A stretch of 64,000 nucleotides of DNA from an uncultured Acidobacteriota bacterium (GCA_963843575.1 CAWJKZ010000027.1:32001-96000); one strand, 5' to 3'. Shown: positions 49,636 to 59,546, counted from the first letter of the stretch. Notes: generated from the letters alone by a model not told the origin. Numbers and translations: made by a program.

Positions 49636-51234
49636 TTGACGAACCAGTTCAGGACCGCGCTCGAGAAGGGTGAGTTTGTCTACACGGCAGAACTGGTGCT
49701 CGGCAGGGACCACTCGGTGCCGGAGGCCGAGGAGTTCGTCCGCGCCGCGGCACGGGAGCCGCGAGGCGTGCGGATCGTCAGCGTCACCGATCTCCCCGGC
49801 GGGAACCCAGCCCTACCACCCGAGGCGTTCGTCCCCTTCCTCCTAAAAAACGGCCTCACCCCCATCGCGCACCTGACAGGCAAGGACGGCAACCGGGCCG
49901 CAATCGAGAGCCGTCTCCACGCGCTGGCGCGCCTGGGGGTCGACAACATCCTAGCCCTGACGGGCGATGCGCCGCGCAGCGGGTTCCTGGGCAGACCGAA
50001 GCCGGTCTTCGATCTCGATTCCGTCCTGATCCTCCGGCTCATCCAGGCCATGGGCTCCGGGATCCGATTCGAGGTCGGTTCCAGGACGGCACAGACCACA
50101 CCCTTCGAGTTCTTCGCCGGCGCCGTGGTCAATCCCTTCAAAGGACGGCAACCCGACCTCATGATGCAGCTCTACAAGCTGGAGCTGAAGATCAGGGCGG
50201 GCGCCGCGTTCGTCATCCCGCAGATCGGGTACAACCTCCGCAAGTTATACGAGGCCAGGCAGTACATGATGCGGGAAGGGCTTGCAGTGCCCGTCCTCGC
50301 CAACGTGTACGTCCCGACGGCCGCCATCGCACGCCGGATGAAGGAGGGTGAGATCCCAGGCTGTGCCGTCGGCGATGCGCTCATCCGCCGGCTGGAGGGG
50401 GAAAAGAAGCCGCAGCGGCTGGAACGGGCGGCCCTGATGGTCGCAGCCGCCAGGACGCTGGGCTTTGCCGGGGCGCACATCGGGGGGTTCGGGCTCAGCC
50501 ACGGCGATTTCCTCCACATCATCGACCGCTCGCTCGAGATCGGGCCCGACTGGAAAGGCCGCATCGACGAACTCCTGTTCGAGACGACGCCCGACGAATT
50601 CTATCTCCTCCCGGCGGCGGCCGACGGTCTCAGTGACGGCGCGGGACGGTATCGGCTCCCGGCCCTCCCCGCGCCCACCTTGAACGCCCGGGTCGGTGAC
50701 CTGGTCCACCGGCACCTGATCGACCCCAGCTCGGCTCCAGCCAGGTTCCTCTCCCGCCGGTTCGGCGGGCGCGAGGGGAACGGCGCGGGCTGGAGGACCG
50801 GTTTCTGGTACCGGATGCTCGGCCTGGCGACCCTTTACCGCAAGGCGGCCCTGGGCTGCGCTGGGTGCGGCGACTGCGTTCAGGACCACCTCGGTTACGC
50901 GGGCTGCTCGATGCGCTGGTGCTACAAGAACCTGCGCAACGGCCCGTGCGGCGGCTCGCGCCCCGACGGCTCGTGTGAGGCCGTCCCGGAAAACCCCTGC
51001 ATATGGAACCGGGTCTACCTGAACACGCTCGGGCTGAAGCGCGACCCCGGCAAATTCGCCTCCACCCTCGTCCCGCCGCGCGACTGGGGCCTGGACCACA
51101 CCAACGCGCTCGCCAACCGGTTCGCCGGCATCGACAACCTCGAGCGCCGGGCCAGGCTGGAGGCACCGGGGACAGAACACCGGGAAGACGACCGGAGTGA
51201 ACTCGACGGGGCGGATGAAACCCGCCCCCGCTAA
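49636..51234 (+). CDS. metF: Methylenetetrahydrofolate reductase fused to a C-terminal MetV-like Cys-rich domain
   Basis: SVTDLPGGNP, HLTGKDGNR, LALTGD, FDLDSV, KIRAGA.F.IPQ; C-terminal CAGCGDC...C..WC.KNLRNGPCGGS...CE...CIW. Confidence 0.88.
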   Translation: MTNQFRTALEKGEFVYTAELVLGRDHSVPEAEEFVRAAAREPRGVRIVSVTDLPGGNPALPPEAFVPFLLKNGLTPIAHLTGKDGNRAAIESRLHALARLGVDNILALTGDAPRSGFLGRPKPVFDLDSVLILRLIQAMGSGIRFEVGSRTAQTTPFEFFAGAVVNPFKGRQPDLMMQLYKLELKIRAGAAFVIPQIGYNLRKLYEARQYMMREGLAVPVLANVYVPTAAIARRMKEGEIPGCAVGDALIRRLEGEKKPQRLERAALMVAAARTLGFAGAHIGGFGLSHGDFLHIIDRSLEIGPDWKGRIDELLFETTPDEFYLLPAAADGLSDGAGRYRLPALPAPTLNARVGDLVHRHLIDPSSAPARFLSRRFGGREGNGAGWRTGFWYRMLGLATLYRKAALGCAGCGDCVQDHLGYAGCSMRWCYKNLRNGPCGGSRPDGSCEAVPENPCIWNRVYLNTLGLKRDPGKFASTLVPPRDWGLDHTNALANRFAGIDNLERRARLEAPGTEHREDDRSELDGADETRPR

Positions 51235-51249
51235 CGCGGAGGTCTCACC

Positions 51250-52053
51250 ATGCTCGTCATAGGCGAGCGCATCAACGCGACGCGCAAACGCATCCGGGAA
51301 GCGGTGCTTGCCGGTAACGCGGATCTGATCAAAGAAGAAGCGCGCAGGCAGGTCGAAGCCGGCGCCCACATGCTCGACGTCAACGGAGGCATCGAGGGGA
51401 GGGAGCCGGAACTGTTGAAGTGGCTCGTCGGCATCGTCCAGGGCGTGACGGACGTGCCGCTGTGCCTCGACAGCGCCGACCCGGACGCGCTGCGCCAGGC
51501 CCTGCCGCTGTGCCGCGGCCAGGCGATGATCAACTCGGTCACCGACGAAGACGCCCGCTGCGCGGCCCTTCTGCCGGTGATCCTGGAAGCGCGCACGAAG
51601 GTGGTCGCCCTCTGCATGTCCGCCTCCGGGCCGCCATCGGGCGTGGACGACCGCGTGACCACCGCCGTCCGCCTGGTCGACAGGCTCACCTCCGCGGGCG
51701 TTCCGCCGCAGGACATCTACGTCGATCCCTGCGTGTTTCCCACAAGCACCGGGGGTGCGCATGGCCCCGCGCTGCTGGAGGCCGTTGGCCGGATCAGGGC
51801 ACTCTGCCCCGAGGTCCACACGACCTGCGGGGTGAGCAACGTCTCGTTCGGGCTACCGGCGCGGAAGCTGCTGAACGAGGTCTTCCTCATGATGCTGCTC
51901 GGGCGCGGCCTCGACGCCGCCATCATCGACCCGTGCGACACCGGACTGATGGCCCGCGTAACCGCCGCCGAAGCCCTTATCGGGCGCGACGATTTCTGCG
52001 AAGCCTACCTGCTCTCCTACCGCGCCGGCAAGCTCGGGGAGGTCTCCAGGTAA
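51250..52053 (+). CDS. acsE: Methyltetrahydrofolate:corrinoid methyltransferase (pterin-binding, AcsE-like)
   Basis: VIGERINATRK, LDVNGG, PLCLDS, MINS, YVDP, GVSNVSFGLP.R.LLN, GLDAAIIDP. Confidence 0.82.
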   Translation: MLVIGERINATRKRIREAVLAGNADLIKEEARRQVEAGAHMLDVNGGIEGREPELLKWLVGIVQGVTDVPLCLDSADPDALRQALPLCRGQAMINSVTDEDARCAALLPVILEARTKVVALCMSASGPPSGVDDRVTTAVRLVDRLTSAGVPPQDIYVDPCVFPTSTGGAHGPALLEAVGRIRALCPEVHTTCGVSNVSFGLPARKLLNEVFLMMLLGRGLDAAIIDPCDTGLMARVTAAEALIGRDDFCEAYLLSYRAGKLGEVSR

Positions 52054-52409: not shown

Positions 52410-53918
52410 ATGGTCAACAAAATAAGCTACAAGCTCATCCTGGCCGTGGGCGGCGTGGCGCTTGTCATCGTAAGCGCCTACGCCTTCGTGACCCTCAGGG
52501 CCCATCACGCGCAGCTTATCAGCGAGTTGCGCCGTAGCGCGAATCAGCTCAGCGAGACGATCAAGAGCAGTACCCGATACGACATGCTGTTGAACCAGCG
52601 GGAATCCGTGCACCGCATCATCAACACCATCGGCACACAGGAGGGCATTCAGAAGGTCCGCATTTTCAACAAAGAGGGGGCGATCATCGTCTCGACGGAT
52701 TCGGCCGACATCGGCCGGATGGTGGACAAGAATGCGGAGGCCTGTTACGTCTGCCACGCGGCGAATCAGCCTATCGAGAGACTGGGGATACCGGATCGCA
52801 CCCGCATTTTTCAGCCCGCGGGCGGCGATCGGATCCTGAGCATCATCAACCCCATCTACAACGAGCCGACCTGCTGGCAGAGCGACTGCCACGCACACGA
52901 CCCCGCCAAGAAGGTGCTGGGCGTGCTGGATATATCGATGTCGCTGCGCGACGTGGACCGTGAAACGAGGGCCAGCGAGAACCGCCTGGTGCTGTTCGGC
53001 CTCGGAGCCATCGCCGCCGTAAGCCTGATCATTTACCTGTTGGTCGACCAGATCGTGCTCAAACCGGTGCACAAGATCGTGGACGCGACCCGCAAAGTGG
53101 CCGCCGGCGACCTCCACTACAAGATTGCCCTCGAGAAGCGGGACGAGATCGGTCAACTGGCGAGTTCCTTCAACGAGATGACGCAAAAACTCGCGGAAGC
53201 GCAGCGCCAGGTCTATCAGTCGCAAAAGCTCGCGGCCGTCGGCCAACTGGCCGCGGGAGTTGCGCACGAAATCAACAACCCCCTCACAGGGGTGCTGAGT
53301 TACAGCAGTTTTCTGCTCAAGCGCGCACAGGACAAGCCCGAGTTCAAGGAGGACCTGGAGGTGATCGTGCGCGAGACCAAGCGGTGCCGCGGAATCGTGC
53401 AGGGTCTGCTCGACTTCGCGCGCCAGTCGCCGCCGGAAAAACACGAGAGCGACATAACAGATATTTTCGAGCGCGCGCTCCGCATCGTGCAAACCCAGAT
53501 CGACCCGCTTCGCGTCGAGCTGAAGAAGGACATCCGCGACGACCTGCCCAAGATCTACGCGGACGCCAATCAAATCCAGCAGGTCCTGGTCAACCTGCTG
53601 CTCAACGCCAACGACGCCATGGCCGCGGACGGCGGTACCCTTTCGGTCTCCGCCCGTCTCGCGGGGGACGGGGGCGTTGCGGCTGCACAGTCCGGGAAGA
53701 TCGAGATCCGCGTGAGCGACACCGGGTGCGGCATAGCGCCCGAAAACCTGCAGAAGATCTTCGATCCATTTTTCTCGACCAAAGGGCCAAAGGGGACCGG
53801 CCTCGGGCTGGCGGTGGCGTGGGGCATCGTGGAAAAACACAACGGACGAATCGAAGCCGAGAGCGAATTGGGCAAGGGGACAACCTTTCGGGTTGTGCTG
53901 CCGATAGGCAGGGGCTAG
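52410..53918 (+). CDS. Membrane sensor histidine kinase with periplasmic heme-c motifs, HAMP, HisKA, HATPase
   Basis: Two TM segments flank CYVCH and CWQSDCHAH; AHEINNPL, NLLLNA, DTGCG, GTGLGL. Confidence 0.93.
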   Translation: MVNKISYKLILAVGGVALVIVSAYAFVTLRAHHAQLISELRRSANQLSETIKSSTRYDMLLNQRESVHRIINTIGTQEGIQKVRIFNKEGAIIVSTDSADIGRMVDKNAEACYVCHAANQPIERLGIPDRTRIFQPAGGDRILSIINPIYNEPTCWQSDCHAHDPAKKVLGVLDISMSLRDVDRETRASENRLVLFGLGAIAAVSLIIYLLVDQIVLKPVHKIVDATRKVAAGDLHYKIALEKRDEIGQLASSFNEMTQKLAEAQRQVYQSQKLAAVGQLAAGVAHEINNPLTGVLSYSSFLLKRAQDKPEFKEDLEVIVRETKRCRGIVQGLLDFARQSPPEKHESDITDIFERALRIVQTQIDPLRVELKKDIRDDLPKIYADANQIQQVLVNLLLNANDAMAADGGTLSVSARLAGDGGVAAAQSGKIEIRVSDTGCGIAPENLQKIFDPFFSTKGPKGTGLGLAVAWGIVEKHNGRIEAESELGKGTTFRVVLPIGRG

Positions 53919-54053
53919 GCATAGACTTTGCGGCCGGCGACGAGCGCTTTCCTGGATCGTGCCCCGACGGTATCCTCGCGTGGACCGTTCGGCGCGCCGT
54001 CGTGCGGACCTCATCCATGGCCGGCGGTTGTCCGGCTTCGTAGAGGCTGAGAG

Positions 54054-55214
54054 GTGGAAAACATGGTTCCTATTCTCGTCGTGACGATGATCGCGGCGTT
54101 CATCGTCGTCGATCTGCTGATCAGGTATGTGTCGAACCGAATGCGCAAGGCCAAGGAACTCAAGGAACGCCTTGCCGCACTGGATACGGGCCTGCGCCTC
54201 GATTTCACCCACGAAGCGAAATCACTCAAGCGGGTGGAGGTGGCCAAGCCGTACGCGCGCATCCTCGCCGTCGACGACGAGGCGATCGTCCTGGACAGCT
54301 TCAGGAAAATCCTCGTCGCGGCCGGATACGCGATCGACACGGTCGAGAGCGGCCGCGAAGCGCTCGGGCTGGTCCAGAGAAACAAGTACGATTTCGTCTT
54401 CACCGACCTGAAGATGCCGGAAATGGACGGCCTCGACGTGGTCAAGGGGGTGAAGCACTTCAGCCCGGAATCGGACATCGTCGTCATCACGGGCTATGCG
54501 ACGATAGAATCCGCCGTCAATGCGATGAAATACGGGGCGATGGACTACGTGCAGAAGCCCTTCACCGAAGACGAGTTGGTCGAGTTCACCAGGAAGTGCC
54601 TGATCCGCAGGCACGACCGCCTGCAGAAAGGGCTGGCCCCCACCGTGCGCGTGGTGACGACAGACCGGCTGCGCGCCAACGAGTTCCGCATCCCGGGGGG
54701 CGTGTTCATCTCCGGCGGTCACGTCTGGGTGAGTGTCACGGTGCCGGGGATCGTGCGGGTGGGGATGGACGATTTCGCGCGCAAGATGATAGGCCACATC
54801 GACGGAATCGAACTGCCGGCCGAGGGCGCCGCCCTGAAGAAAGGCGATCCCCTCTTCAAGGTGAGGCAAGGGGGACGCGTGGCCACCTTTCACGCGCCGG
54901 TCTCGGGTGTCGTCCAGAACCTCAACACCGACTTGCCGCGAAACCTGGACTGGCTGGAACGGCACACCTACGAAAACGGGTGGGTGTGCTCGATGAAACC
55001 CGATCACCTTGCCGACGAGCTCGCGCAGATGAACATCGGCGACAAGGCCGCGGCCTGGTACCAGTTGGAGATCGCGCGTCTGCAGCAACTGTTTGCACCG
55101 CCGCTCGACGACCCGTCCTCGGGGCTCGCGCCCGTCACGCTCGTGGAAGGCCAGTTGCAGGAGGCCGATGACGACCTGTGGGCCAGGTTTGCCGGGACGT
55201 TTCTGCAGCCGTAG
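54054..55214 (+). CDS. Membrane-anchored response-regulator receiver fused to a GcvH-like domain
   Basis: N-terminal hydrophobic helix; VDDE, FTDLKMP, ITGY, QKPF; GHVWV...VRVGMDDFA...HAPVSGVV...N...YENGW. Confidence 0.88.
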   Translation: MENMVPILVVTMIAAFIVVDLLIRYVSNRMRKAKELKERLAALDTGLRLDFTHEAKSLKRVEVAKPYARILAVDDEAIVLDSFRKILVAAGYAIDTVESGREALGLVQRNKYDFVFTDLKMPEMDGLDVVKGVKHFSPESDIVVITGYATIESAVNAMKYGAMDYVQKPFTEDELVEFTRKCLIRRHDRLQKGLAPTVRVVTTDRLRANEFRIPGGVFISGGHVWVSVTVPGIVRVGMDDFARKMIGHIDGIELPAEGAALKKGDPLFKVRQGGRVATFHAPVSGVVQNLNTDLPRNLDWLERHTYENGWVCSMKPDHLADELAQMNIGDKAAAWYQLEIARLQQLFAPPLDDPSSGLAPVTLVEGQLQEADDDLWARFAGTFLQP

Positions 55215-55316: not shown

Positions 55317-56256
55317 ATGGAAAAGAAGCTGCACCGCCGCACGCTCCTCAAGCTGGGCCTGGCCGCGACCGCCGGGGGTTCGACTCCCCCGCTGGCGCTG
55401 GCGTCGTCCCAGCCGCAAGGGCAGAATCAGCCCCCTCCGGACCACGCGGGCGTGCTCGTGGACACGACACTCTGTATCGGGTGCCGGAAGTGCGAGGAGG
55501 CGTGCAATCGCCGGAACAACCTGCCGCGCACGGCCGACGTCCTTTTCAGACCGGGAGGTCCTGCGCTCGTTCCGCCGGCCCAGCGAAACCGCGTTCACCG
55601 TGGTGAACCAGTTCCCGGGGAGCCCTTCACCCGACCAGGCCGACCTGCCGCAGACATATGCGAAGGTCCAATGCATGCACTGCCTCTACCCGTCCTGCGT
55701 CTCGGCGTGCATCGTGGGGGCGCTGACGAAGTCGGCGGACGGCGCAGTGGTCTACAACCCCACGATCTGCCTGGGCTGCCGCTACTGCCAGGTCGCCTGT
55801 CCCTTCGAAATCCCGGCATACGAGTTTCATGAACCGCTCGTGCCGCGTGTGCGCAAGTGCGAGTTCTGCACCGACCGCGCGCGGGGCACCGGGGCCAATC
55901 CCGCCTGCGCCGCCTCTTGCCCCACCGAGGCCCTGGTCTTCGGCCGCAGGGCGGAGTTGCTCGCCATGGCCAAGGAGCGCATCAAGAAACGCCCCAACCG
56001 CTACGTCAACCACGTGTATGGCGAGACGGAGGCGGGGGGGACCGGCTGGCTCTACCTGACCGGGCGGCCGGTGCAGGAGGTCGGACTGCTGAATCTCCCG
56101 AGCAAGGCTCCGCCGCAGCTGACCGAGACCATTCAGCACGGCATCTTCAGATTCGGCATGATCCCGATCGCGTTCTATGGCCTGCTCTCATACCTGTGGC
56201 ACCGCAACATGCAGCGGCCCGGCGATGCCGGCACGACCGAAGGCGGTGCGGAATGA
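55317..56256 (+). CDS. Tat-exported 4x[4Fe-4S] electron-transfer subunit (HybA/HmcB/NrfC-like), frameshift near 55548
   Basis: HRRTLL; CIGCRKCEEAC, CMHC..PSCVSAC, CLGCRYCQVACP, CEFC...CAASCP; C-terminal TM helix. Confidence 0.9.
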
Positions 56257-59200
56257 CCCCCAGACTTCACGACGAACACGGCCACCGCGTCACAAAACCC
56301 TTCTTCACCTTCGGCACGTTGACCCTCCTCATTTTCATGGGCGCCGGGTTTGCCTTCGGCATCACGCGCCTGTTTCTCGGGCTGGGGACCGTGACCAACC
56401 TGGACAACCACAACCCGTGGGGGATCTGGATTGCGTTCGACGTAGCGTGCGGCGTGGCCCTGGCCGCCGGCGGGTTCACCACCGCCGCCCTGGTCGATAT
56501 CTTCGGCAAGAAGAGATACAAAGTCCTGCTGCGCCCGGCCATCCTCACGGCATTCCTCGGTTACCTTTGGGTGGCTATCGCGCTGAGCTTCGATCTCGGC
56601 CGGTACTGGAACATCTGGCGGCCCATCTTCAACTGGCAGGGGAACTCGGTGCTCTTCGAGGTGGGCATGTGCGTCACCGCCTACCTCATGGTGTTGACCG
56701 TCGAGATGAGCCCGGCGTTTCTGGAAGGGCTGAAAGCCCGCATCGACCGGGACGAGTGGGGCGCGGCGCTGCTGCGCAGAGTGGAGAAACCGCTCCTCAC
56801 GCTTCACGCCGCCGTCAAGATCGCCCTGCCGATGTTCATCGTCGCCGGTGTGGTGCTCTCGTTCATGCACCAGTCATCCCTGGGGACGCTCATGCTGATC
56901 GCCCCCAGCAAGATGAGCGCCCTGTGGTTCACCCCCATCCTCCCGCTCCTGTTCCTGCTGTCGGCGATCATGGTCGGGTTCCCGATGGTCATCCTGGAGT
57001 CCATCTACGCCAACATAAGTTTTGGCCGCAACCCGGAAATGGATCTCCTGACCCCGATGGCCCGCATCATCCCCTGGTTCCTCGGGCTCTACGGCGTGGT
57101 GAAAATCGGCGACCTCGTCGTCCGGCATAATCAACTGAATTTCCTCGAGCACCCCGCATCCACCACCGCCCTCGCGATCGAGATCCTGCTGGGCGTCGTA
57201 GCCCCCTTCCTGCTGTTTCTCAGCAAGGCGGTCCGCCGGTCCATGGGCTGGATGTTCTTCACCGTTTGCCTGATCATCTTCGGCGTCGTGCTGAACCGGC
57301 TCAACGTTTTCCTGGTGGCCTACAATCCCCCGTACTCCACCAAGGCTTACTTCCCGTCGATCGGGGAGATCGCGATGACCATCGCGATCGTTTCCAGCAT
57401 ATTGTTCTGCTACCGCTTCTGCGTGACCTTCTTCCCGATCCTGCCGGGCTACGTGCCGAGCGTCGAGGTCCAGATCGCACGCATGCGCGAGGAACGCGAA
57501 ACGGCCGTGAGCCCGTTCTGGACCTGGGCGATCCGCGGTGCCGCCATAGCGTGCCTCCTGACCTTCATCGGCCTGTACAGCTTTGTGCACATCGAGGCCA
57601 TCCAGTCCTCCGTAAAAACCGTCCAGGAGGTGCGGCGCGTTCAGACGCAGATGCGCGTCTCCGCCGCCGGCGCGCCGGGGCCTTCCTATCCCCAGCGTCC
57701 CTCGGGCTACAAGAACTTCTACCTGCTGGACAGCCCCCTGCTGAAGGCCAGGGCGGACGACTACGAGCCGGTGCGCTTCTCGCACCGCATTCACGATGGC
57801 TTGACCGGGGGGGACTGCGGAATCTGCCATCACCGTTTTGCGGGCGACGAGAAGGATCGGCTGGGAAACGACGTCAAGGAGCTGCACGCGTCCATAGACG
57901 TCAAGCTGGGCGGTCCCTGCTCTTCCTGCCACGACAACATGGAACAGAACCCGCCCCAGAGCTGCACCCGCTGCCACGGGATGCCCAACGAGCCGGACAG
58001 CCCCTCACGCCTCGGGCTCAAGGGCGCCTACCACCGCCTCTGCATCGGCTGCCACGAACGCCAGGTCAAACCGACCTCCGCGCCGACGGAGTGCGCCGCC
58101 TGCCACCACCCATGGACACCGGATCATTCCAAGCTGGTCACCCTCGGAGCGAAGCCCAGCCCCCAGGACGTGACGCGGGCGTGCCTGAGCTGCCACGCCA
58201 AGGCGGGGCAGGACCTGCTCAAGACAGCCCACTGGAACTGGAAGGGCTCCTCTCCCACGCTGGCGGGCTACGAGCGCCGCACCGACATCAGCCTGAAGCT
58301 CATGGTGAACAACTACTGCGTCGCCATCGGATCCAACCAGCAGCAATGCATGTCCTGTCACATCGGCTACGGCGGCATGGATGACCGCTACGATTTTTCC
58401 AACCCGGCCAACATCGATTGCCTGATCTGCCACGACACGACCGGGAAGTACAGAAAGGATCCAAGCACGGGCGGACTGCCCGATCCGTCGGTCGACCTGG
58501 TCGCGCTGTCGGCCAGGGTGGGCCGCCCCTCACGGCAGGCCTGCGGTTCGTGCCACTTTTATAGCGGCGGAGCTCCCAATGCCAAACACGGGGACCTGGA
58601 GCCGGCCTTGACCGACTCGAACGAACCGATCGACATGCACATGGGTACCCTGAATATGCGGTGCCAGGATTGCCACACCACCAGCGAACACAGGATCGCC
58701 GGGATGTCGCTGACTGCCCCCGCCGTCGAAGGGCGCATAAGCTGCGACAAGTGCCACGGCCTCACGCCTCACGGGGTTGCCGGCTCGCTGAGCCGCCACC
58801 TGGACGATCACATCGCGAATATCGCCTGCGAAACCTGCCACATCCCTAGCTTTGCCCATCGCTCCCCCACCCTGCTGCGGCGCGATTTTTCCACCGCAGG
58901 CCAGAACCGGCCCGAAACCCTCGACCGGTACGGGATGCCAACCTACGACAAGAAGTTCGGCGCGCTTACCTGGGGGAAGGACTTGGTGCCCGTCTATCTC
59001 TGGTACGACGGGACGCGCAACGCCTCCCTCGCCGGCGGCCGCATCGACCCTTCCTCCCCCGTCCTTCTGAACGCCCCGGTCGGGGAAAAACGCAGTCCCG
59101 TGGCGCGCATCTTCCCCTTCAAGGTGCACGCCGGGGTCCAGCCCTACGACACCGAAAACAACACCCTCGCCTTGCCCGATTTCGTCGGGAACTACTGGGT

Positions 59201-59546
59201 TAACTTCGATTGGGCGAAAGCCCTCGTCGCCGGCATGAAGCGCATGGGCCTACCCTATTCGGGCAAGTACGCATTCGTGGAAACCAAGATGTACTCCTCC
59301 ATCCACCACCAGGTCGCACCGGCGAAAAAGGCGCTGGGCTGCACCGATTGTCACAGCGCGGCGGCCGTCACGTGCGCGCGTTGCCACAAGGGAGCTGCGG
59401 GGACCGCGCTCCCGTCGCACCGGCTCGCCATGTACCCCGAAGTAAAGAACCGGATGGATTTCAAGGCGCTCGGCTACACCGATGATCCCGCCCTCACGGG
59501 CGGCCGCTTTCACATCACCATCGGCCGTGGCTCGCCCGCACAATAG
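56253..59546 (+). CDS. NrfD/HybB membrane subunit fused to a class III cytochrome c and an octaheme tetrathionate-reductase-like domain (14 CxxCH)
   Basis: ATGA overlap with the upstream stop; PWGIWIAFDV..GVALAAGGF, DLGR.W, HQSSLG; VRFSH...LKGAYH; AHWNW, NNYC, CHDTTG, KHGDL, CHIP, PFKVH, IHHQVAP. Confidence 0.9.
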   Translation: MTPRLHDEHGHRVTKPFFTFGTLTLLIFMGAGFAFGITRLFLGLGTVTNLDNHNPWGIWIAFDVACGVALAAGGFTTAALVDIFGKKRYKVLLRPAILTAFLGYLWVAIALSFDLGRYWNIWRPIFNWQGNSVLFEVGMCVTAYLMVLTVEMSPAFLEGLKARIDRDEWGAALLRRVEKPLLTLHAAVKIALPMFIVAGVVLSFMHQSSLGTLMLIAPSKMSALWFTPILPLLFLLSAIMVGFPMVILESIYANISFGRNPEMDLLTPMARIIPWFLGLYGVVKIGDLVVRHNQLNFLEHPASTTALAIEILLGVVAPFLLFLSKAVRRSMGWMFFTVCLIIFGVVLNRLNVFLVAYNPPYSTKAYFPSIGEIAMTIAIVSSILFCYRFCVTFFPILPGYVPSVEVQIARMREERETAVSPFWTWAIRGAAIACLLTFIGLYSFVHIEAIQSSVKTVQEVRRVQTQMRVSAAGAPGPSYPQRPSGYKNFYLLDSPLLKARADDYEPVRFSHRIHDGLTGGDCGICHHRFAGDEKDRLGNDVKELHASIDVKLGGPCSSCHDNMEQNPPQSCTRCHGMPNEPDSPSRLGLKGAYHRLCIGCHERQVKPTSAPTECAACHHPWTPDHSKLVTLGAKPSPQDVTRACLSCHAKAGQDLLKTAHWNWKGSSPTLAGYERRTDISLKLMVNNYCVAIGSNQQQCMSCHIGYGGMDDRYDFSNPANIDCLICHDTTGKYRKDPSTGGLPDPSVDLVALSARVGRPSRQACGSCHFYSGGAPNAKHGDLEPALTDSNEPIDMHMGTLNMRCQDCHTTSEHRIAGMSLTAPAVEGRISCDKCHGLTPHGVAGSLSRHLDDHIANIACETCHIPSFAHRSPTLLRRDFSTAGQNRPETLDRYGMPTYDKKFGALTWGKDLVPVYLWYDGTRNASLAGGRIDPSSPVLLNAPVGEKRSPVARIFPFKVHAGVQPYDTENNTLALPDFVGNYWVNFDWAKALVAGMKRMGLPYSGKYAFVETKMYSSIHHQVAPAKKALGCTDCHSAAAVTCARCHKGAAGTALPSHRLAMYPEVKNRMDFKALGYTDDPALTGGRFHITIGRGSPAQ

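Follow-up and report, generated by a model that had tools for sequence, protein, structure and literature searches.

The window analysed here is a stretch of 64,000 nucleotides from an uncultured Acidobacteriota bacterium (GCA_963843575.1 CAWJKZ010000027.1:32001-96000). On its plus strand, one open reading frame (56253..59546) encodes a fusion protein of 1097 amino acids (P0001) with zero internal stops on translation, as the initial annotation had claimed. All 14 CxxCH motifs listed there were found, at residues 522, 556, 571, 597, 614, 644, 699, 723, 764, 804, 831, 859, 1030, and 1041, where 0.04 would be expected from composition. Profile searches detected each of the predicted domains along the chain: NrfD at residues 47-356 (Pfam), a c3/c7 region at 507-618, and octaheme tetrathionate reductase (OTR) at 624-1037 (TIGR04315, 471 bits against a cut-off of 375). 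On the DNA, a 10-helix NrfD-family domain of the HybB/HmcC/QrcD type (56301..57431; Pfam, profiles, topology, and fold search) is followed by an 11th transmembrane helix that brings the heme domains to the periplasm (57516..57593; topology and AF2 model), a c3-type tetraheme domain with a fifth heme (57735..58118; fold search and alignments), the OTR-fold octaheme domain (58122..59363; 1SP3 E 7.7e-113), and an extra, 14th heme motif, CARCH (59373..59387), all on the plus strand. There are 11 hydrophobic segments, and the alternation of the K/R-rich loops between them predicts a cytoplasmic N-terminus and periplasmic heme domains, in support of the location first proposed for the hemes. The AF2 model (pLDDT 82.9) matched OTR 1SP3 in a fold search with Z 40.5 and an rmsd of 1.7 Å over 416 residues, ActC with Z about 30, and type I c3 with a middling Z of 7.3; a phmmer search of the NrfD domain against the PDB gave no match, ActC and PsrC being recovered by fold search only. 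The modelled protein is likely a membrane protein of 11 helices that bears a head of 14 hemes in the periplasm and is predicted to bind quinone. A promoter and terminator scan gave results at chance level.

Counting the query, at least 132 full-length 90% clusters, most of them from uncultured Acidobacteriota, keep the NrfD/HybB–c3–OTR–extra heme fusion as one ORF, so both the single-chain claim and the search for homologues spanning all domains were borne out by 131 other clusters. Before these counts were made, 10/120 homologue matches shorter than 1080 aa were dropped, as were 71/148 later-found rows without the heme II region; P0122-P0167 were left out of the unfused set, being treated by identity as partial fusion-family sequences, and 2 fragments were removed from the remaining 74 unfused rows. 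A stop-free fusion ORF occurs in 10/40 relatives' genomes. At the junctions, a short-read contig (run X2, 57846-58394) crosses the c3-OTR boundary and the heme II site with 3 substitutions and no gap; none of the contigs aligned covers the NrfD-c3 stretch 57465-57615. The other clusters, the relatives' genomes, and the junction-spanning contig led us to reject an assembly artefact. Cleavage after helix 11, which would free a soluble or loosely bound cytochrome of ~80 kDa from a polyprotein fused for co-expression, is very improbable: unfused cytochromes do start with a hydrophobic signal or anchor and the linker 452-475 has a pLDDT below 50, but 129/132 fusions retain His446, which lies where helix 11 ends on the outer side, and the AF2 model shows a single continuous helix 421-459. 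Helix 11 itself would descend from the N-terminal signal or anchor of the cytochrome.

Directly upstream (55317..56256, plus strand) lies the gene of a HybA/HmcB-like subunit, exported by Tat (RRTLL) and anchored by its C-terminal tail. Its four Cys groups are predicted to hold 4x[4Fe-4S], and the stop of the gene overlaps the start codon of the fusion (ATGA). As assembled, one extra base near 55537 splits the reading frame of this Fe-S gene. A 151-nt short-read contig (run X1, depth 2) is otherwise identical and does not have this base, and the gene reads through in 5/5 relatives translated; the frameshift is probably an assembly error, and given this contig and the intact relatives a true pseudogene is unlikely. 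Intact relatives scored 271 and 257 bits against a HybA cut-off of 263. A Tat Fe-S gene was found directly upstream of the fusion in 24/24 loci with room, a pairing that supports the two-gene complex proposed initially, and the absence of a hydrogenase or molybdoenzyme subunit also held, no such family being present among 38 flanking genes scanned (hand-picked near neighbours). No conserved partner gene next to the operon was found among the flanking genes examined. Two accessory genes lie further upstream on the plus strand: a HAMP histidine kinase, a predicted c-heme sensor (52410..53918; Pfam HisKA/HATPase/HAMP/sCache_4) with CYVCH and CWQSDCH in its periplasmic sensor, and a regulator with an N-terminal hydrophobic segment, a receiver, and a GcvH-like domain (54054..55214; Pfam Response_reg, GCV_H). 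A homologue of the kinase (>70%) adjoins the fusion in 5/25 named loci and the regulator does so in 7/25.

To place the membrane domain, QrcD residues D70, Y110, D120, E142, Y150, E157, E164, and H199 were mapped by spacing from PMC6303296, without a QrcD sequence alignment. In the fusions, W56, I60, D63, Y104, D114, E136, Y144, E151, and H206 are kept in 130-132/132 (D63, Y104, D114, E136, Y144, E151, and H206 in 131-132/132) and E158 in 119/132; the predicted QrcD-type quinone-site and proton-path pattern is thus kept, and electrons may flow in either direction. In PMC6303296, QrcD/HybB/HmcC-type subunits are described as quinone reductases taking cytoplasmic protons, so the energy-conserving direction would be inward, and the quinol-to-catalyst direction of the initial annotation is unsupported as stated.

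In the trees, the OTR domains of the fusions form one clade (support 100/100), sister to c3-OTR proteins of ~710 aa (99/96), whose relatives lie in Fe-S/NrfD/c3-OTR operons at 34/80 loci; where NrfD lies upstream at unfused loci, a stop separates it from OTR in 42/42. Descent of the fusion from a Lys-bearing Fe-S/NrfD/c3-OTR operon was thereby shown. NrfD plus 6-heme fusions in G040 and G005 were discarded as intermediates, since they carry a different cytochrome in Hmc/Tmc-like operons. The fifth heme motif of the c3 region, CSSCH 556, sits with H545 in an insert absent from 12 aligned unfused c3-OTR proteins. The CARCH motif is present in 132/132 fusions, and the distal ligand of its heme is likely His849 (58797-58799), as judged from covariation: among 72 unfused OTRs, this His and a motif at the CARCH position are both present in 13 and both absent in 59.

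The heme II site of the OTR fold (58293..58361, plus strand) is remodelled. In the alignment to 1SP3, Leu681 corresponds to OTR Lys56, Cys689 to Cys64, and CMSCH 699-703 to C74xxC77H78; the residue numbering and Lys56 as ligand of heme II are from PMC3769277, and a Lys ligand of heme II in OTR is also given in the MmcA paper (10.1101/2023.04.20.537704). Lys56 is kept in 72/72 close unfused OTRs and in 64/73 diverse non-NrfD OTR-like rows. Among 132 fusions, this column holds Lys in 3, Leu in 110, Arg in 8, and others in 11 (K, R, L, M, V, F, A, I, and P being seen). The next position in P0001 is a Lys (K682), but only 10/132 fusions have Lys in that column. An Arg before heme II, conserved in 67/72 unfused OTRs, is also replaced by other residues in fusions. 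We do not claim a single loss of Lys, because a basal Lys/Arg clade appears with FastTree while the base is unresolved with IQ-TREE and the three Lys fusions are scattered. The heme II CxxC is present in 110/132 fusions and absent in 22, each other motif occurring in 131-132/132. Its loss by substitution had two origins on a site-excluded tree (IQ-TREE; a single origin gave AU p 0.011). Two relatives of the same NrfD clade (SH-aLRT 99), P0267 and P0268, which occur on 3 and 6 contigs, have in-frame deletions that remove most of the beta domain together with the heme II loop and leave the other seven OTR motifs in place. By these comparisons, the site is lost at least four times, twice by substitution and twice by deletion, and the losses came without change of operon or architecture. 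Two divergent fusions, P0264 and P0266, retain the whole OTR site.

The initial annotation had placed an S- or N-oxyanion active site here; as stated this is unsupported, with Leu681 in place of Lys56 and the site eroding across the fusion family. A quinol-fed canonical OTR-type reductase of nitrite, hydroxylamine, tetrathionate, or sulfite, in which K682 or His703 replaces Lys56, is improbable. It would account for the TIGR04315 score, the eight motifs, the retained fold, and the Cys64, Lys153, and His154 equivalents found in P0001 (1SP3 alignment), and the full site of P0264 and P0266 fits it; NrfA variants with CxxCH in place of Lys still reduce nitrite (PMC12285233), so loss of Lys alone is no proof of lost catalysis. 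Against it, Lys56 is invariant in the close unfused OTRs and drifts in fusions, with high-potential acceptors a proton path that faces the cytoplasm would be wasteful of proton-motive force (by extension from PMC6303296), and Shewanella OTR itself is described as dispensable for tetrathionate respiration in PMC12949373, where the native role of OTR is given as an open question.

The Cys of the site follows a different course. In the near clade of P0001 (90 rows, at least 58% identity), Cys689 is found in 85/90 and the heme II motif in 87/90, with a region conservation of 0.74 against 0.78 elsewhere, so heme II probably remains bound there and subject to selection. Over all fusions the Cys64 equivalent is Cys in 86/132 and absent in 46/132, 17 of the latter with heme II, and 39 have no Cys at 688 or 689; K778 is kept in 117/132 and H779 in 124/132. 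In unfused relatives, 31/72 readable loci have an in-frame TGA at the Cys64 codon with one 7-bp hairpin after it, TAA and TAG never being seen there, a pattern in which TGA is probably selenocysteine. Cys689 and heme II could belong to a remodelled sulfur enzyme, a tentative reading in which, without the Lys, a His/Cys heme like that of TsdA or MccSep would have His703 as its proximal ligand, with Cys689 serving as distal or catalytic thiol. Menaquinol oxidation by a QrcD-type path, driven by proton-motive force, would reduce a low-potential sulfur acceptor (polysulfide, thiosulfate, sulfite, or an organic disulfide), and lineages without heme II would be secondary wires. The retention of Cys689 and CxxCH in near relatives, the redox role suggested by a selenocysteine, the His residues that fusions acquired at 675, 959, and 1018, the catalytic His/Cys hemes of sulfur enzymes (PMC13510729), and the presence of dsrA in 6/12 fusion genomes against 3/29 others (kin, hence non-independent) are in its favour, but the Cys is missing from its column even in those 17 fusions that have heme II, four or more losses of the site left operon and architecture unchanged, and dsrA was not found in this genome (88% complete). 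That the Acidobacteriota clade of P0001 rebuilt the OTR site as a His/Cys catalytic heme on one chain with a quinone site coupled to proton-motive force, in a two-gene sulfur-respiring complex, is a little more doubtful still. If true, TsdA/MccSep-type chemistry was reached in an OTR fold in soil and sediment bacteria, and the wider family spans a selenocysteine/Lys enzyme, a remodelled enzyme, and a pure wire.

We narrowly favour, at somewhat better than an even chance, a reversible quinone–periplasm wire made of the fusion and its Fe-S subunit, with the OTR part acting as a heme chain and not as an enzyme. This reading rests on the loss of Lys56, the repeated loss of heme II, the replacement of the Arg, the QrcD pattern, the decahemes of the genome, and the precedent of MmcA, which lost Lys and heme II and works as a conduit (10.1101/2023.04.20.537704). 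Electrons would pass between quinone at a periplasmic-side NrfD pocket, the Fe-S clusters, the c3 hemes, the OTR-fold hemes, and the extra heme, and from there to or from a partner among periplasmic or outer-membrane cytochromes. Protons would be exchanged with the cytoplasm along the kept QrcD-type polar path, so that quinone reduction by inward flow would generate proton-motive force, which outward flow would consume to pass electrons to low-potential acceptors. We lean only slightly toward the inward direction. An MtrC/DmsE-type conduit of the same genome, not encoded beside the fusion, is a candidate partner: decahemes of the MtrC family and DmsE score above cut-off there, DmsE-type decahemes being non-discriminating (10/12 fusion genomes, 19/29 others). 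A search of this genome (88% complete) recovered neither a group-1 uptake hydrogenase nor a periplasmic formate dehydrogenase as donor for inward flow. Counter-evidence to the wire lies in this missing donor, in the lack of a conserved partner gene beside the operon, and in the near-clade Cys689 and heme II, K778/H779, K682, and the whole site of P0264/P0266.

The OTR-like head is thus likely an electron wire, unlike the reductase label given by databases; P0093, which lacks heme II, still passes TIGR04315 with 421 bits. In the class sampled, 12 genomes have an OTR match above cut-off, in every case the fusion (only one has a second, separate match), so tetrathionate respiration inferred there from "otr" may be wrong, and the family is a warning against annotation-based metabolic claims. 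In Ca. Sulfomarinibacter, "otr" is reported as induced by tetrathionate (RT-qPCR, 10.1101/2020.10.01.322446); one primer of that assay had no match in L037 with up to 3 mismatches, and this induction is not assignable to the fusion. One operon context gives a natural series: unfused forms with Lys and either Cys or TGA, then fused forms that are intact (P0264, P0266), Lys-less (P0001), or heme-II-less (22/132), and lastly those with the catalytic loop deleted (P0267, P0268). This series makes testable both the residues that make OTR an enzyme and a bacterial repeat of the enzyme-to-wire route of MmcA.

Among known systems, Shewanella oneidensis OTR (1SP3) shares with the fusion the fold, eight motifs, seven conserved His taken as distal ligands, and Cys64. 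It is a soluble, stand-alone periplasmic protein, whereas the fusion is membrane-fused with 11 helices, has six extra hemes, and has Lys56 as Leu and Arg73 and Asp150 replaced. With QrcCD/HmcBC/HybAB it shares a 10-helix NrfD-family subunit, the quinone-site and proton-path pattern, a 4-cluster Fe-S partner, and c3-type hemes, as far as PMC6303296 describes them. It scores below the QrcD, HmcC, and HybB cut-offs (103/570, 288/550, and 314/450 bits) and those of Nhc and HmcA (40.6 against 640 and 59.9 against 400 bits), differs at the QrcD Y88, N100, and M139 positions, and has no QrcB, HmcDEF, or hydrogenase adjoining and no hyb, hmc, or qrc operon. MmcA of Methanosarcina acetivorans is likewise an OTR-derived heme chain without Lys (10.1101/2023.04.20.537704), and heme II is also missing, like in MmcA, in 22/132 fusions and in P0267 and P0268. 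MmcA is an Rnf-linked archaeal protein of a clade distinct from OTRs, whereas the fusion family nests among bacterial OTRs, P0001 has the heme II motif and scores 22 bits against the TIGR04314 cut-off of 250, and the neighbours are the Fe-S gene, regulators, and unrelated genes. The parallel would be one of convergence, MmcA lying outside the trees built here.

The closest system is the three-gene module, published and uncharacterised, of Gallego-Parrilla et al. 2024 (PMC10924467, Fig. 3), in which a tail-anchored Tat Fe-S protein, a HybB-like quinol oxidase, and an OTR-family octaheme cytochrome already occur together, so a view of these parts as normally unrelated does not stand. No description of the fusion was found in the full-text literature searched, most subscription papers being outside this scope; main text passages of PMC10924467 make no mention of it, and its supplements could list fused members. 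The fusion derives from this module. Parts and order are alike in both, with a Tat, C-tail-anchored Fe-S gene directly upstream of the HybB-like part and then the OTR-family cytochrome, and both are without conserved flanking genes. Lys, heme II, and a Cys or TGA are all retained by the unfused forms; the fusion joins NrfD to the cytochrome in a single chain, has gained a fifth c3 heme, and has lost Lys56.

The fusion protein (window 56253-59546, +) had been described as a single uninterrupted frame with 14 CxxCH motifs, and both points held: the region reads as one frame of 1097 aa and has the same 14 motifs, where 0.04 would be expected from composition. Pfam/NCBIfam profile searches placed an NrfD domain at residues 47-356, a c3/c7 domain at residues 507-618 and, above cut-off, the octaheme tetrathionate reductase (OTR) model TIGR04315 at residues 624-1037. 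Hydropathy gave 11 hydrophobic segments, and the K+R counts of successive loops alternate (family means 2.7, 1.2, 4.2, 1.9, 5.5, 1.0, 2.3, 1.3, 2.9, 0.9 and 4.4), which implies a cytoplasmic N-terminus and heme domains on the periplasmic side, where the initial annotation had put the active site. His446 (window 57588-57590), which lies where helix 11 ends on the outer side, is conserved in 129/132 fusions. The AF2 model (pLDDT 82.9, pTM 0.61) matched ActC over residues 2-399 (Z about 30), a type I c3 over 484-619 (Z 7.3) and OTR (1SP3) over 622-1087 (Z 40.5, rmsd 1.7 A). The c3-OTR junction is crossed by one short-read contig, in which the heme II codons are unaltered; the NrfD-c3 junction lies outside the contigs' cover. 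That the product is a polyprotein cleaved into its parts seems to us highly improbable.

Two homologue searches, with 689 and 514 matches, yielded between them 132 full-length 90% clusters (1085-1118 aa, query counted); these were taken from the best-ranked matches and are no census. The fusion was present in 12/41 related genomes (11 stop-free, one frameshifted) and was not found in the sole same-genus genome examined, which is 81% complete. The same NrfD-c3-OTR fusion was seen in 25/29 named loci, from Acidobacteriota (Terriglobia, Holophagae, Thermoanaerobaculia), Aminicenantes, NC10, Binatia and one deltaproteobacterium; from these taxa the host is likely an acidobacterium. The fusion was not found described in the openly accessible full-text literature searched, which took in the main text of PMC10924467.

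The proposed upstream Tat subunit with four [4Fe-4S] clusters was recovered as a HybA/HmcB-like gene immediately 5' of the fusion in 24/24 loci with room for it. The product carries four Cys groups as well as a twin-arginine signal and a C-terminal helix, and the stop codon of the gene and the start of the fusion overlap. One extra base near 55537 interrupts this gene in the window; because a 151-nt short-read contig, identical elsewhere, is without that base, the frameshift is probably an assembly error. Hydrogenase and molybdoenzyme subunits, said to be missing, were absent from 38 hand-picked flanking genes. The fusion is accompanied in 5/25 loci by a kinase that has the motifs of a predicted c-heme sensor, and in 7/25 by a receiver-GcvH protein. 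In the window (52410-55214 region) the histidine kinase has periplasmic CYVCH and CWQSDCH motifs, and a membrane-anchored receiver continues into a GcvH-like domain apparently lacking the lipoyl lysine of the canonical motif; further related GcvH-domain genes are at loci L021:4971-5714 and L038:13392-15332. An MTHFR-like gene with a DUF5981 tail adjoins a pterin-binding methyltransferase 5' of the kinase (window 49636-52053). Other multiheme genes lie near the fusion in five loci, two of which have a Lys-bearing OTR.

For QrcD, a quinone pocket and a cytoplasmic proton path have been proposed (PMC6303296). Placed on the fusion by spacing (E413 lies outside this mapping), they correspond to W56, I60, D63, Y104, D114, L134, E136, Y144, E151, E158 and H206, while QrcD Y88, N100 and M139 have no matching residue. 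Most mapped residues are kept in 130-132/132 fusions (L134 in 122, E158 in 119). That paper classes QrcD, HybB and HmcC together as enzymes that likely reduce quinone electrogenically and can run in reverse by spending proton-motive force, and it says that the family has no redox cofactors. Since His206 is the sole invariant His of the ten-helix domain, there is reason to doubt the name 'cytochrome b subunit' given to it in databases. Inward electron flow would conserve energy; outward flow would suit only low-potential acceptors.

The nearest unfused relatives of the same layout are c3-OTR-extra-heme proteins of ~710 aa from Desulfobacterota, e.g. Desulfatibacillum. Around the unfused P0190, NrfD is directly 5' in 42/80 metagenome loci, with a stop between in 42/42, and an Fe-S gene occurs as well in 34/80 (loci partly redundant); these operons are the three-gene Fe-S/HybB-like/OTR-family module published in PMC10924467, as far as its main text describes it. 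When 86 OTR domains were placed on an IQ-TREE phylogeny with the heme II region omitted, the fusions formed a single clade (100/100) with c3-OTR as sister (99/96). The extra C-terminal heme and His849, both present in 13/72 unfused proteins and both missing in 59/72, are by their sequence distribution inherited from the fusion's ancestor. The fifth c3 heme and His545 sit in an insert missing from 12 aligned c3-OTR proteins. The divergent fusion P0266, which clusters with NrfD of the unfused kind, may have been fused independently.

In 1SP3, the catalytic heme II is bound by C74xxC77H78 with Lys56 as ligand (PMC3769277). Alignment to it gave Leu681 for Lys56, Cys689 for Cys64 and residues 699-703 for the heme II motif. 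Lys occupies the Lys56 column in 72/72 close unfused OTRs and 64/73 diverse non-NrfD sequences, vs 3/132 fusions, with any Lys within 679-684 in 16/132. Both heme II cysteines are lost in 22/132 fusions, in two separate lineages (IQ-TREE, AU p 0.011), and each other motif is retained in 131-132. P0267 and P0268, of the same NrfD clade, have lost by deletion the entire heme II loop together with the bulk of the beta domain. These two are NrfD-c3 fusions with the OTR head cut down to seven non-catalytic hemes; P0268 has additional C-terminal motifs. Judged from these alignments, the OTR catalytic site is eroding across the family. A heme chain running non-enzymatically between the quinone pool and periplasmic or outer-membrane cytochromes is the role that we somewhat favour for the OTR-fold part.

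A remodelled His/Cys sulfur enzyme is a serious, if fairly unlikely, rival. Among the 90 nearest proteins, Cys689 is present in 85, the heme II motif in 87 and Leu at the Lys56 column in 83; His703 is retained in 132/132 fusions, cysteine-less ones included, and His at 675, 959 and 1018 are gains. The full OTR site is retained in two divergent fusions, one of them P0266, and CxxCH NrfAs are reported as still active (PMC12285233). The Cys64 codon is TGA in 31/72 readable unfused loci, with the same 7-bp hairpin 3' of each. These are metagenome loci among L062-L110 (e.g. L073:7646, L065:7790); the hairpin lies 16 bases on, and TAA or TAG never occurs at this codon. A GenBank-annotated selenocysteine form of TIGR04315 is listed in PMC13188914, and its characterisation was not encountered in the literature searched. 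The unfused TGA forms are probably selenocysteine OTRs in Fe-S/NrfD operons. With His/Cys hemes catalytic in TsdA and MccSep (PMC13510729), the Cys64 position is thus likely redox-active, which keeps the sulfur enzyme in contention.

In the host genome (88% complete), dsrA was not found, hydrogenase matches were weak, with a best E of 6e-19 and an Mvh/Hdr type for the one looked at, and molybdopterin matches were NuoG and a Psr/Ttr-like enzyme. The Mvh-type large-subunit match (G000:C13:80738-80974) has one in-frame TGA. MtrC-family and DmsE decahemes were above cut-off; at L133:5280-10438, on the same contig, MtrC/OmcA-family and DmsE-family genes are followed by a long ORF, possibly a porin. 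dsrA occurs in 6/12 fusion genomes vs 3/29 others, a comparison among kin that are not independent. Neighbouring host frames with 23 and 43 CxxCH motifs (L134:5354-10578, contig C18) may together make up a single, very large multiheme cytochrome interrupted by a frameshift; the 23-motif frame had no NCBIfam match at 1e-15. A second, distinct NrfD + 6-heme fusion (L141:6426-8351 and L142, genomes G040 and G005) lies in Hmc/Tmc-like operons that also hold DsrK/HmcF-like and HmcE/TmcC-like genes, and probable sulfate-reduction genes adjoin it in L141. Proteins P0270, P0280, P0284, P0285, P0292 and P0352 (about 1000-1430 aa, 15-22 CxxCH) have an OTR domain, in P0270 a tandem pair.

New here are a series counted against controls, losses that recurred and in part took the form of deletions, the link to TGA and the argument on direction. 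The original interpretation survives in part: the single-chain fusion with outward hemes stands, whereas a canonical OTR, which requires the Lys ligand that the fusion lacks, is very unlikely. The fusion is no member of HybB, HmcC or QrcD by cut-off, and an Hmc/Qrc-type quinone module is the closest working likeness for its membrane part. MmcA, described as an electron conduit, has the same losses at the OTR site (10.1101/2023.04.20.537704); the fusion is no member of MmcA, and an MmcA-like OTR-derived heme chain is the closest working likeness for its heme part.
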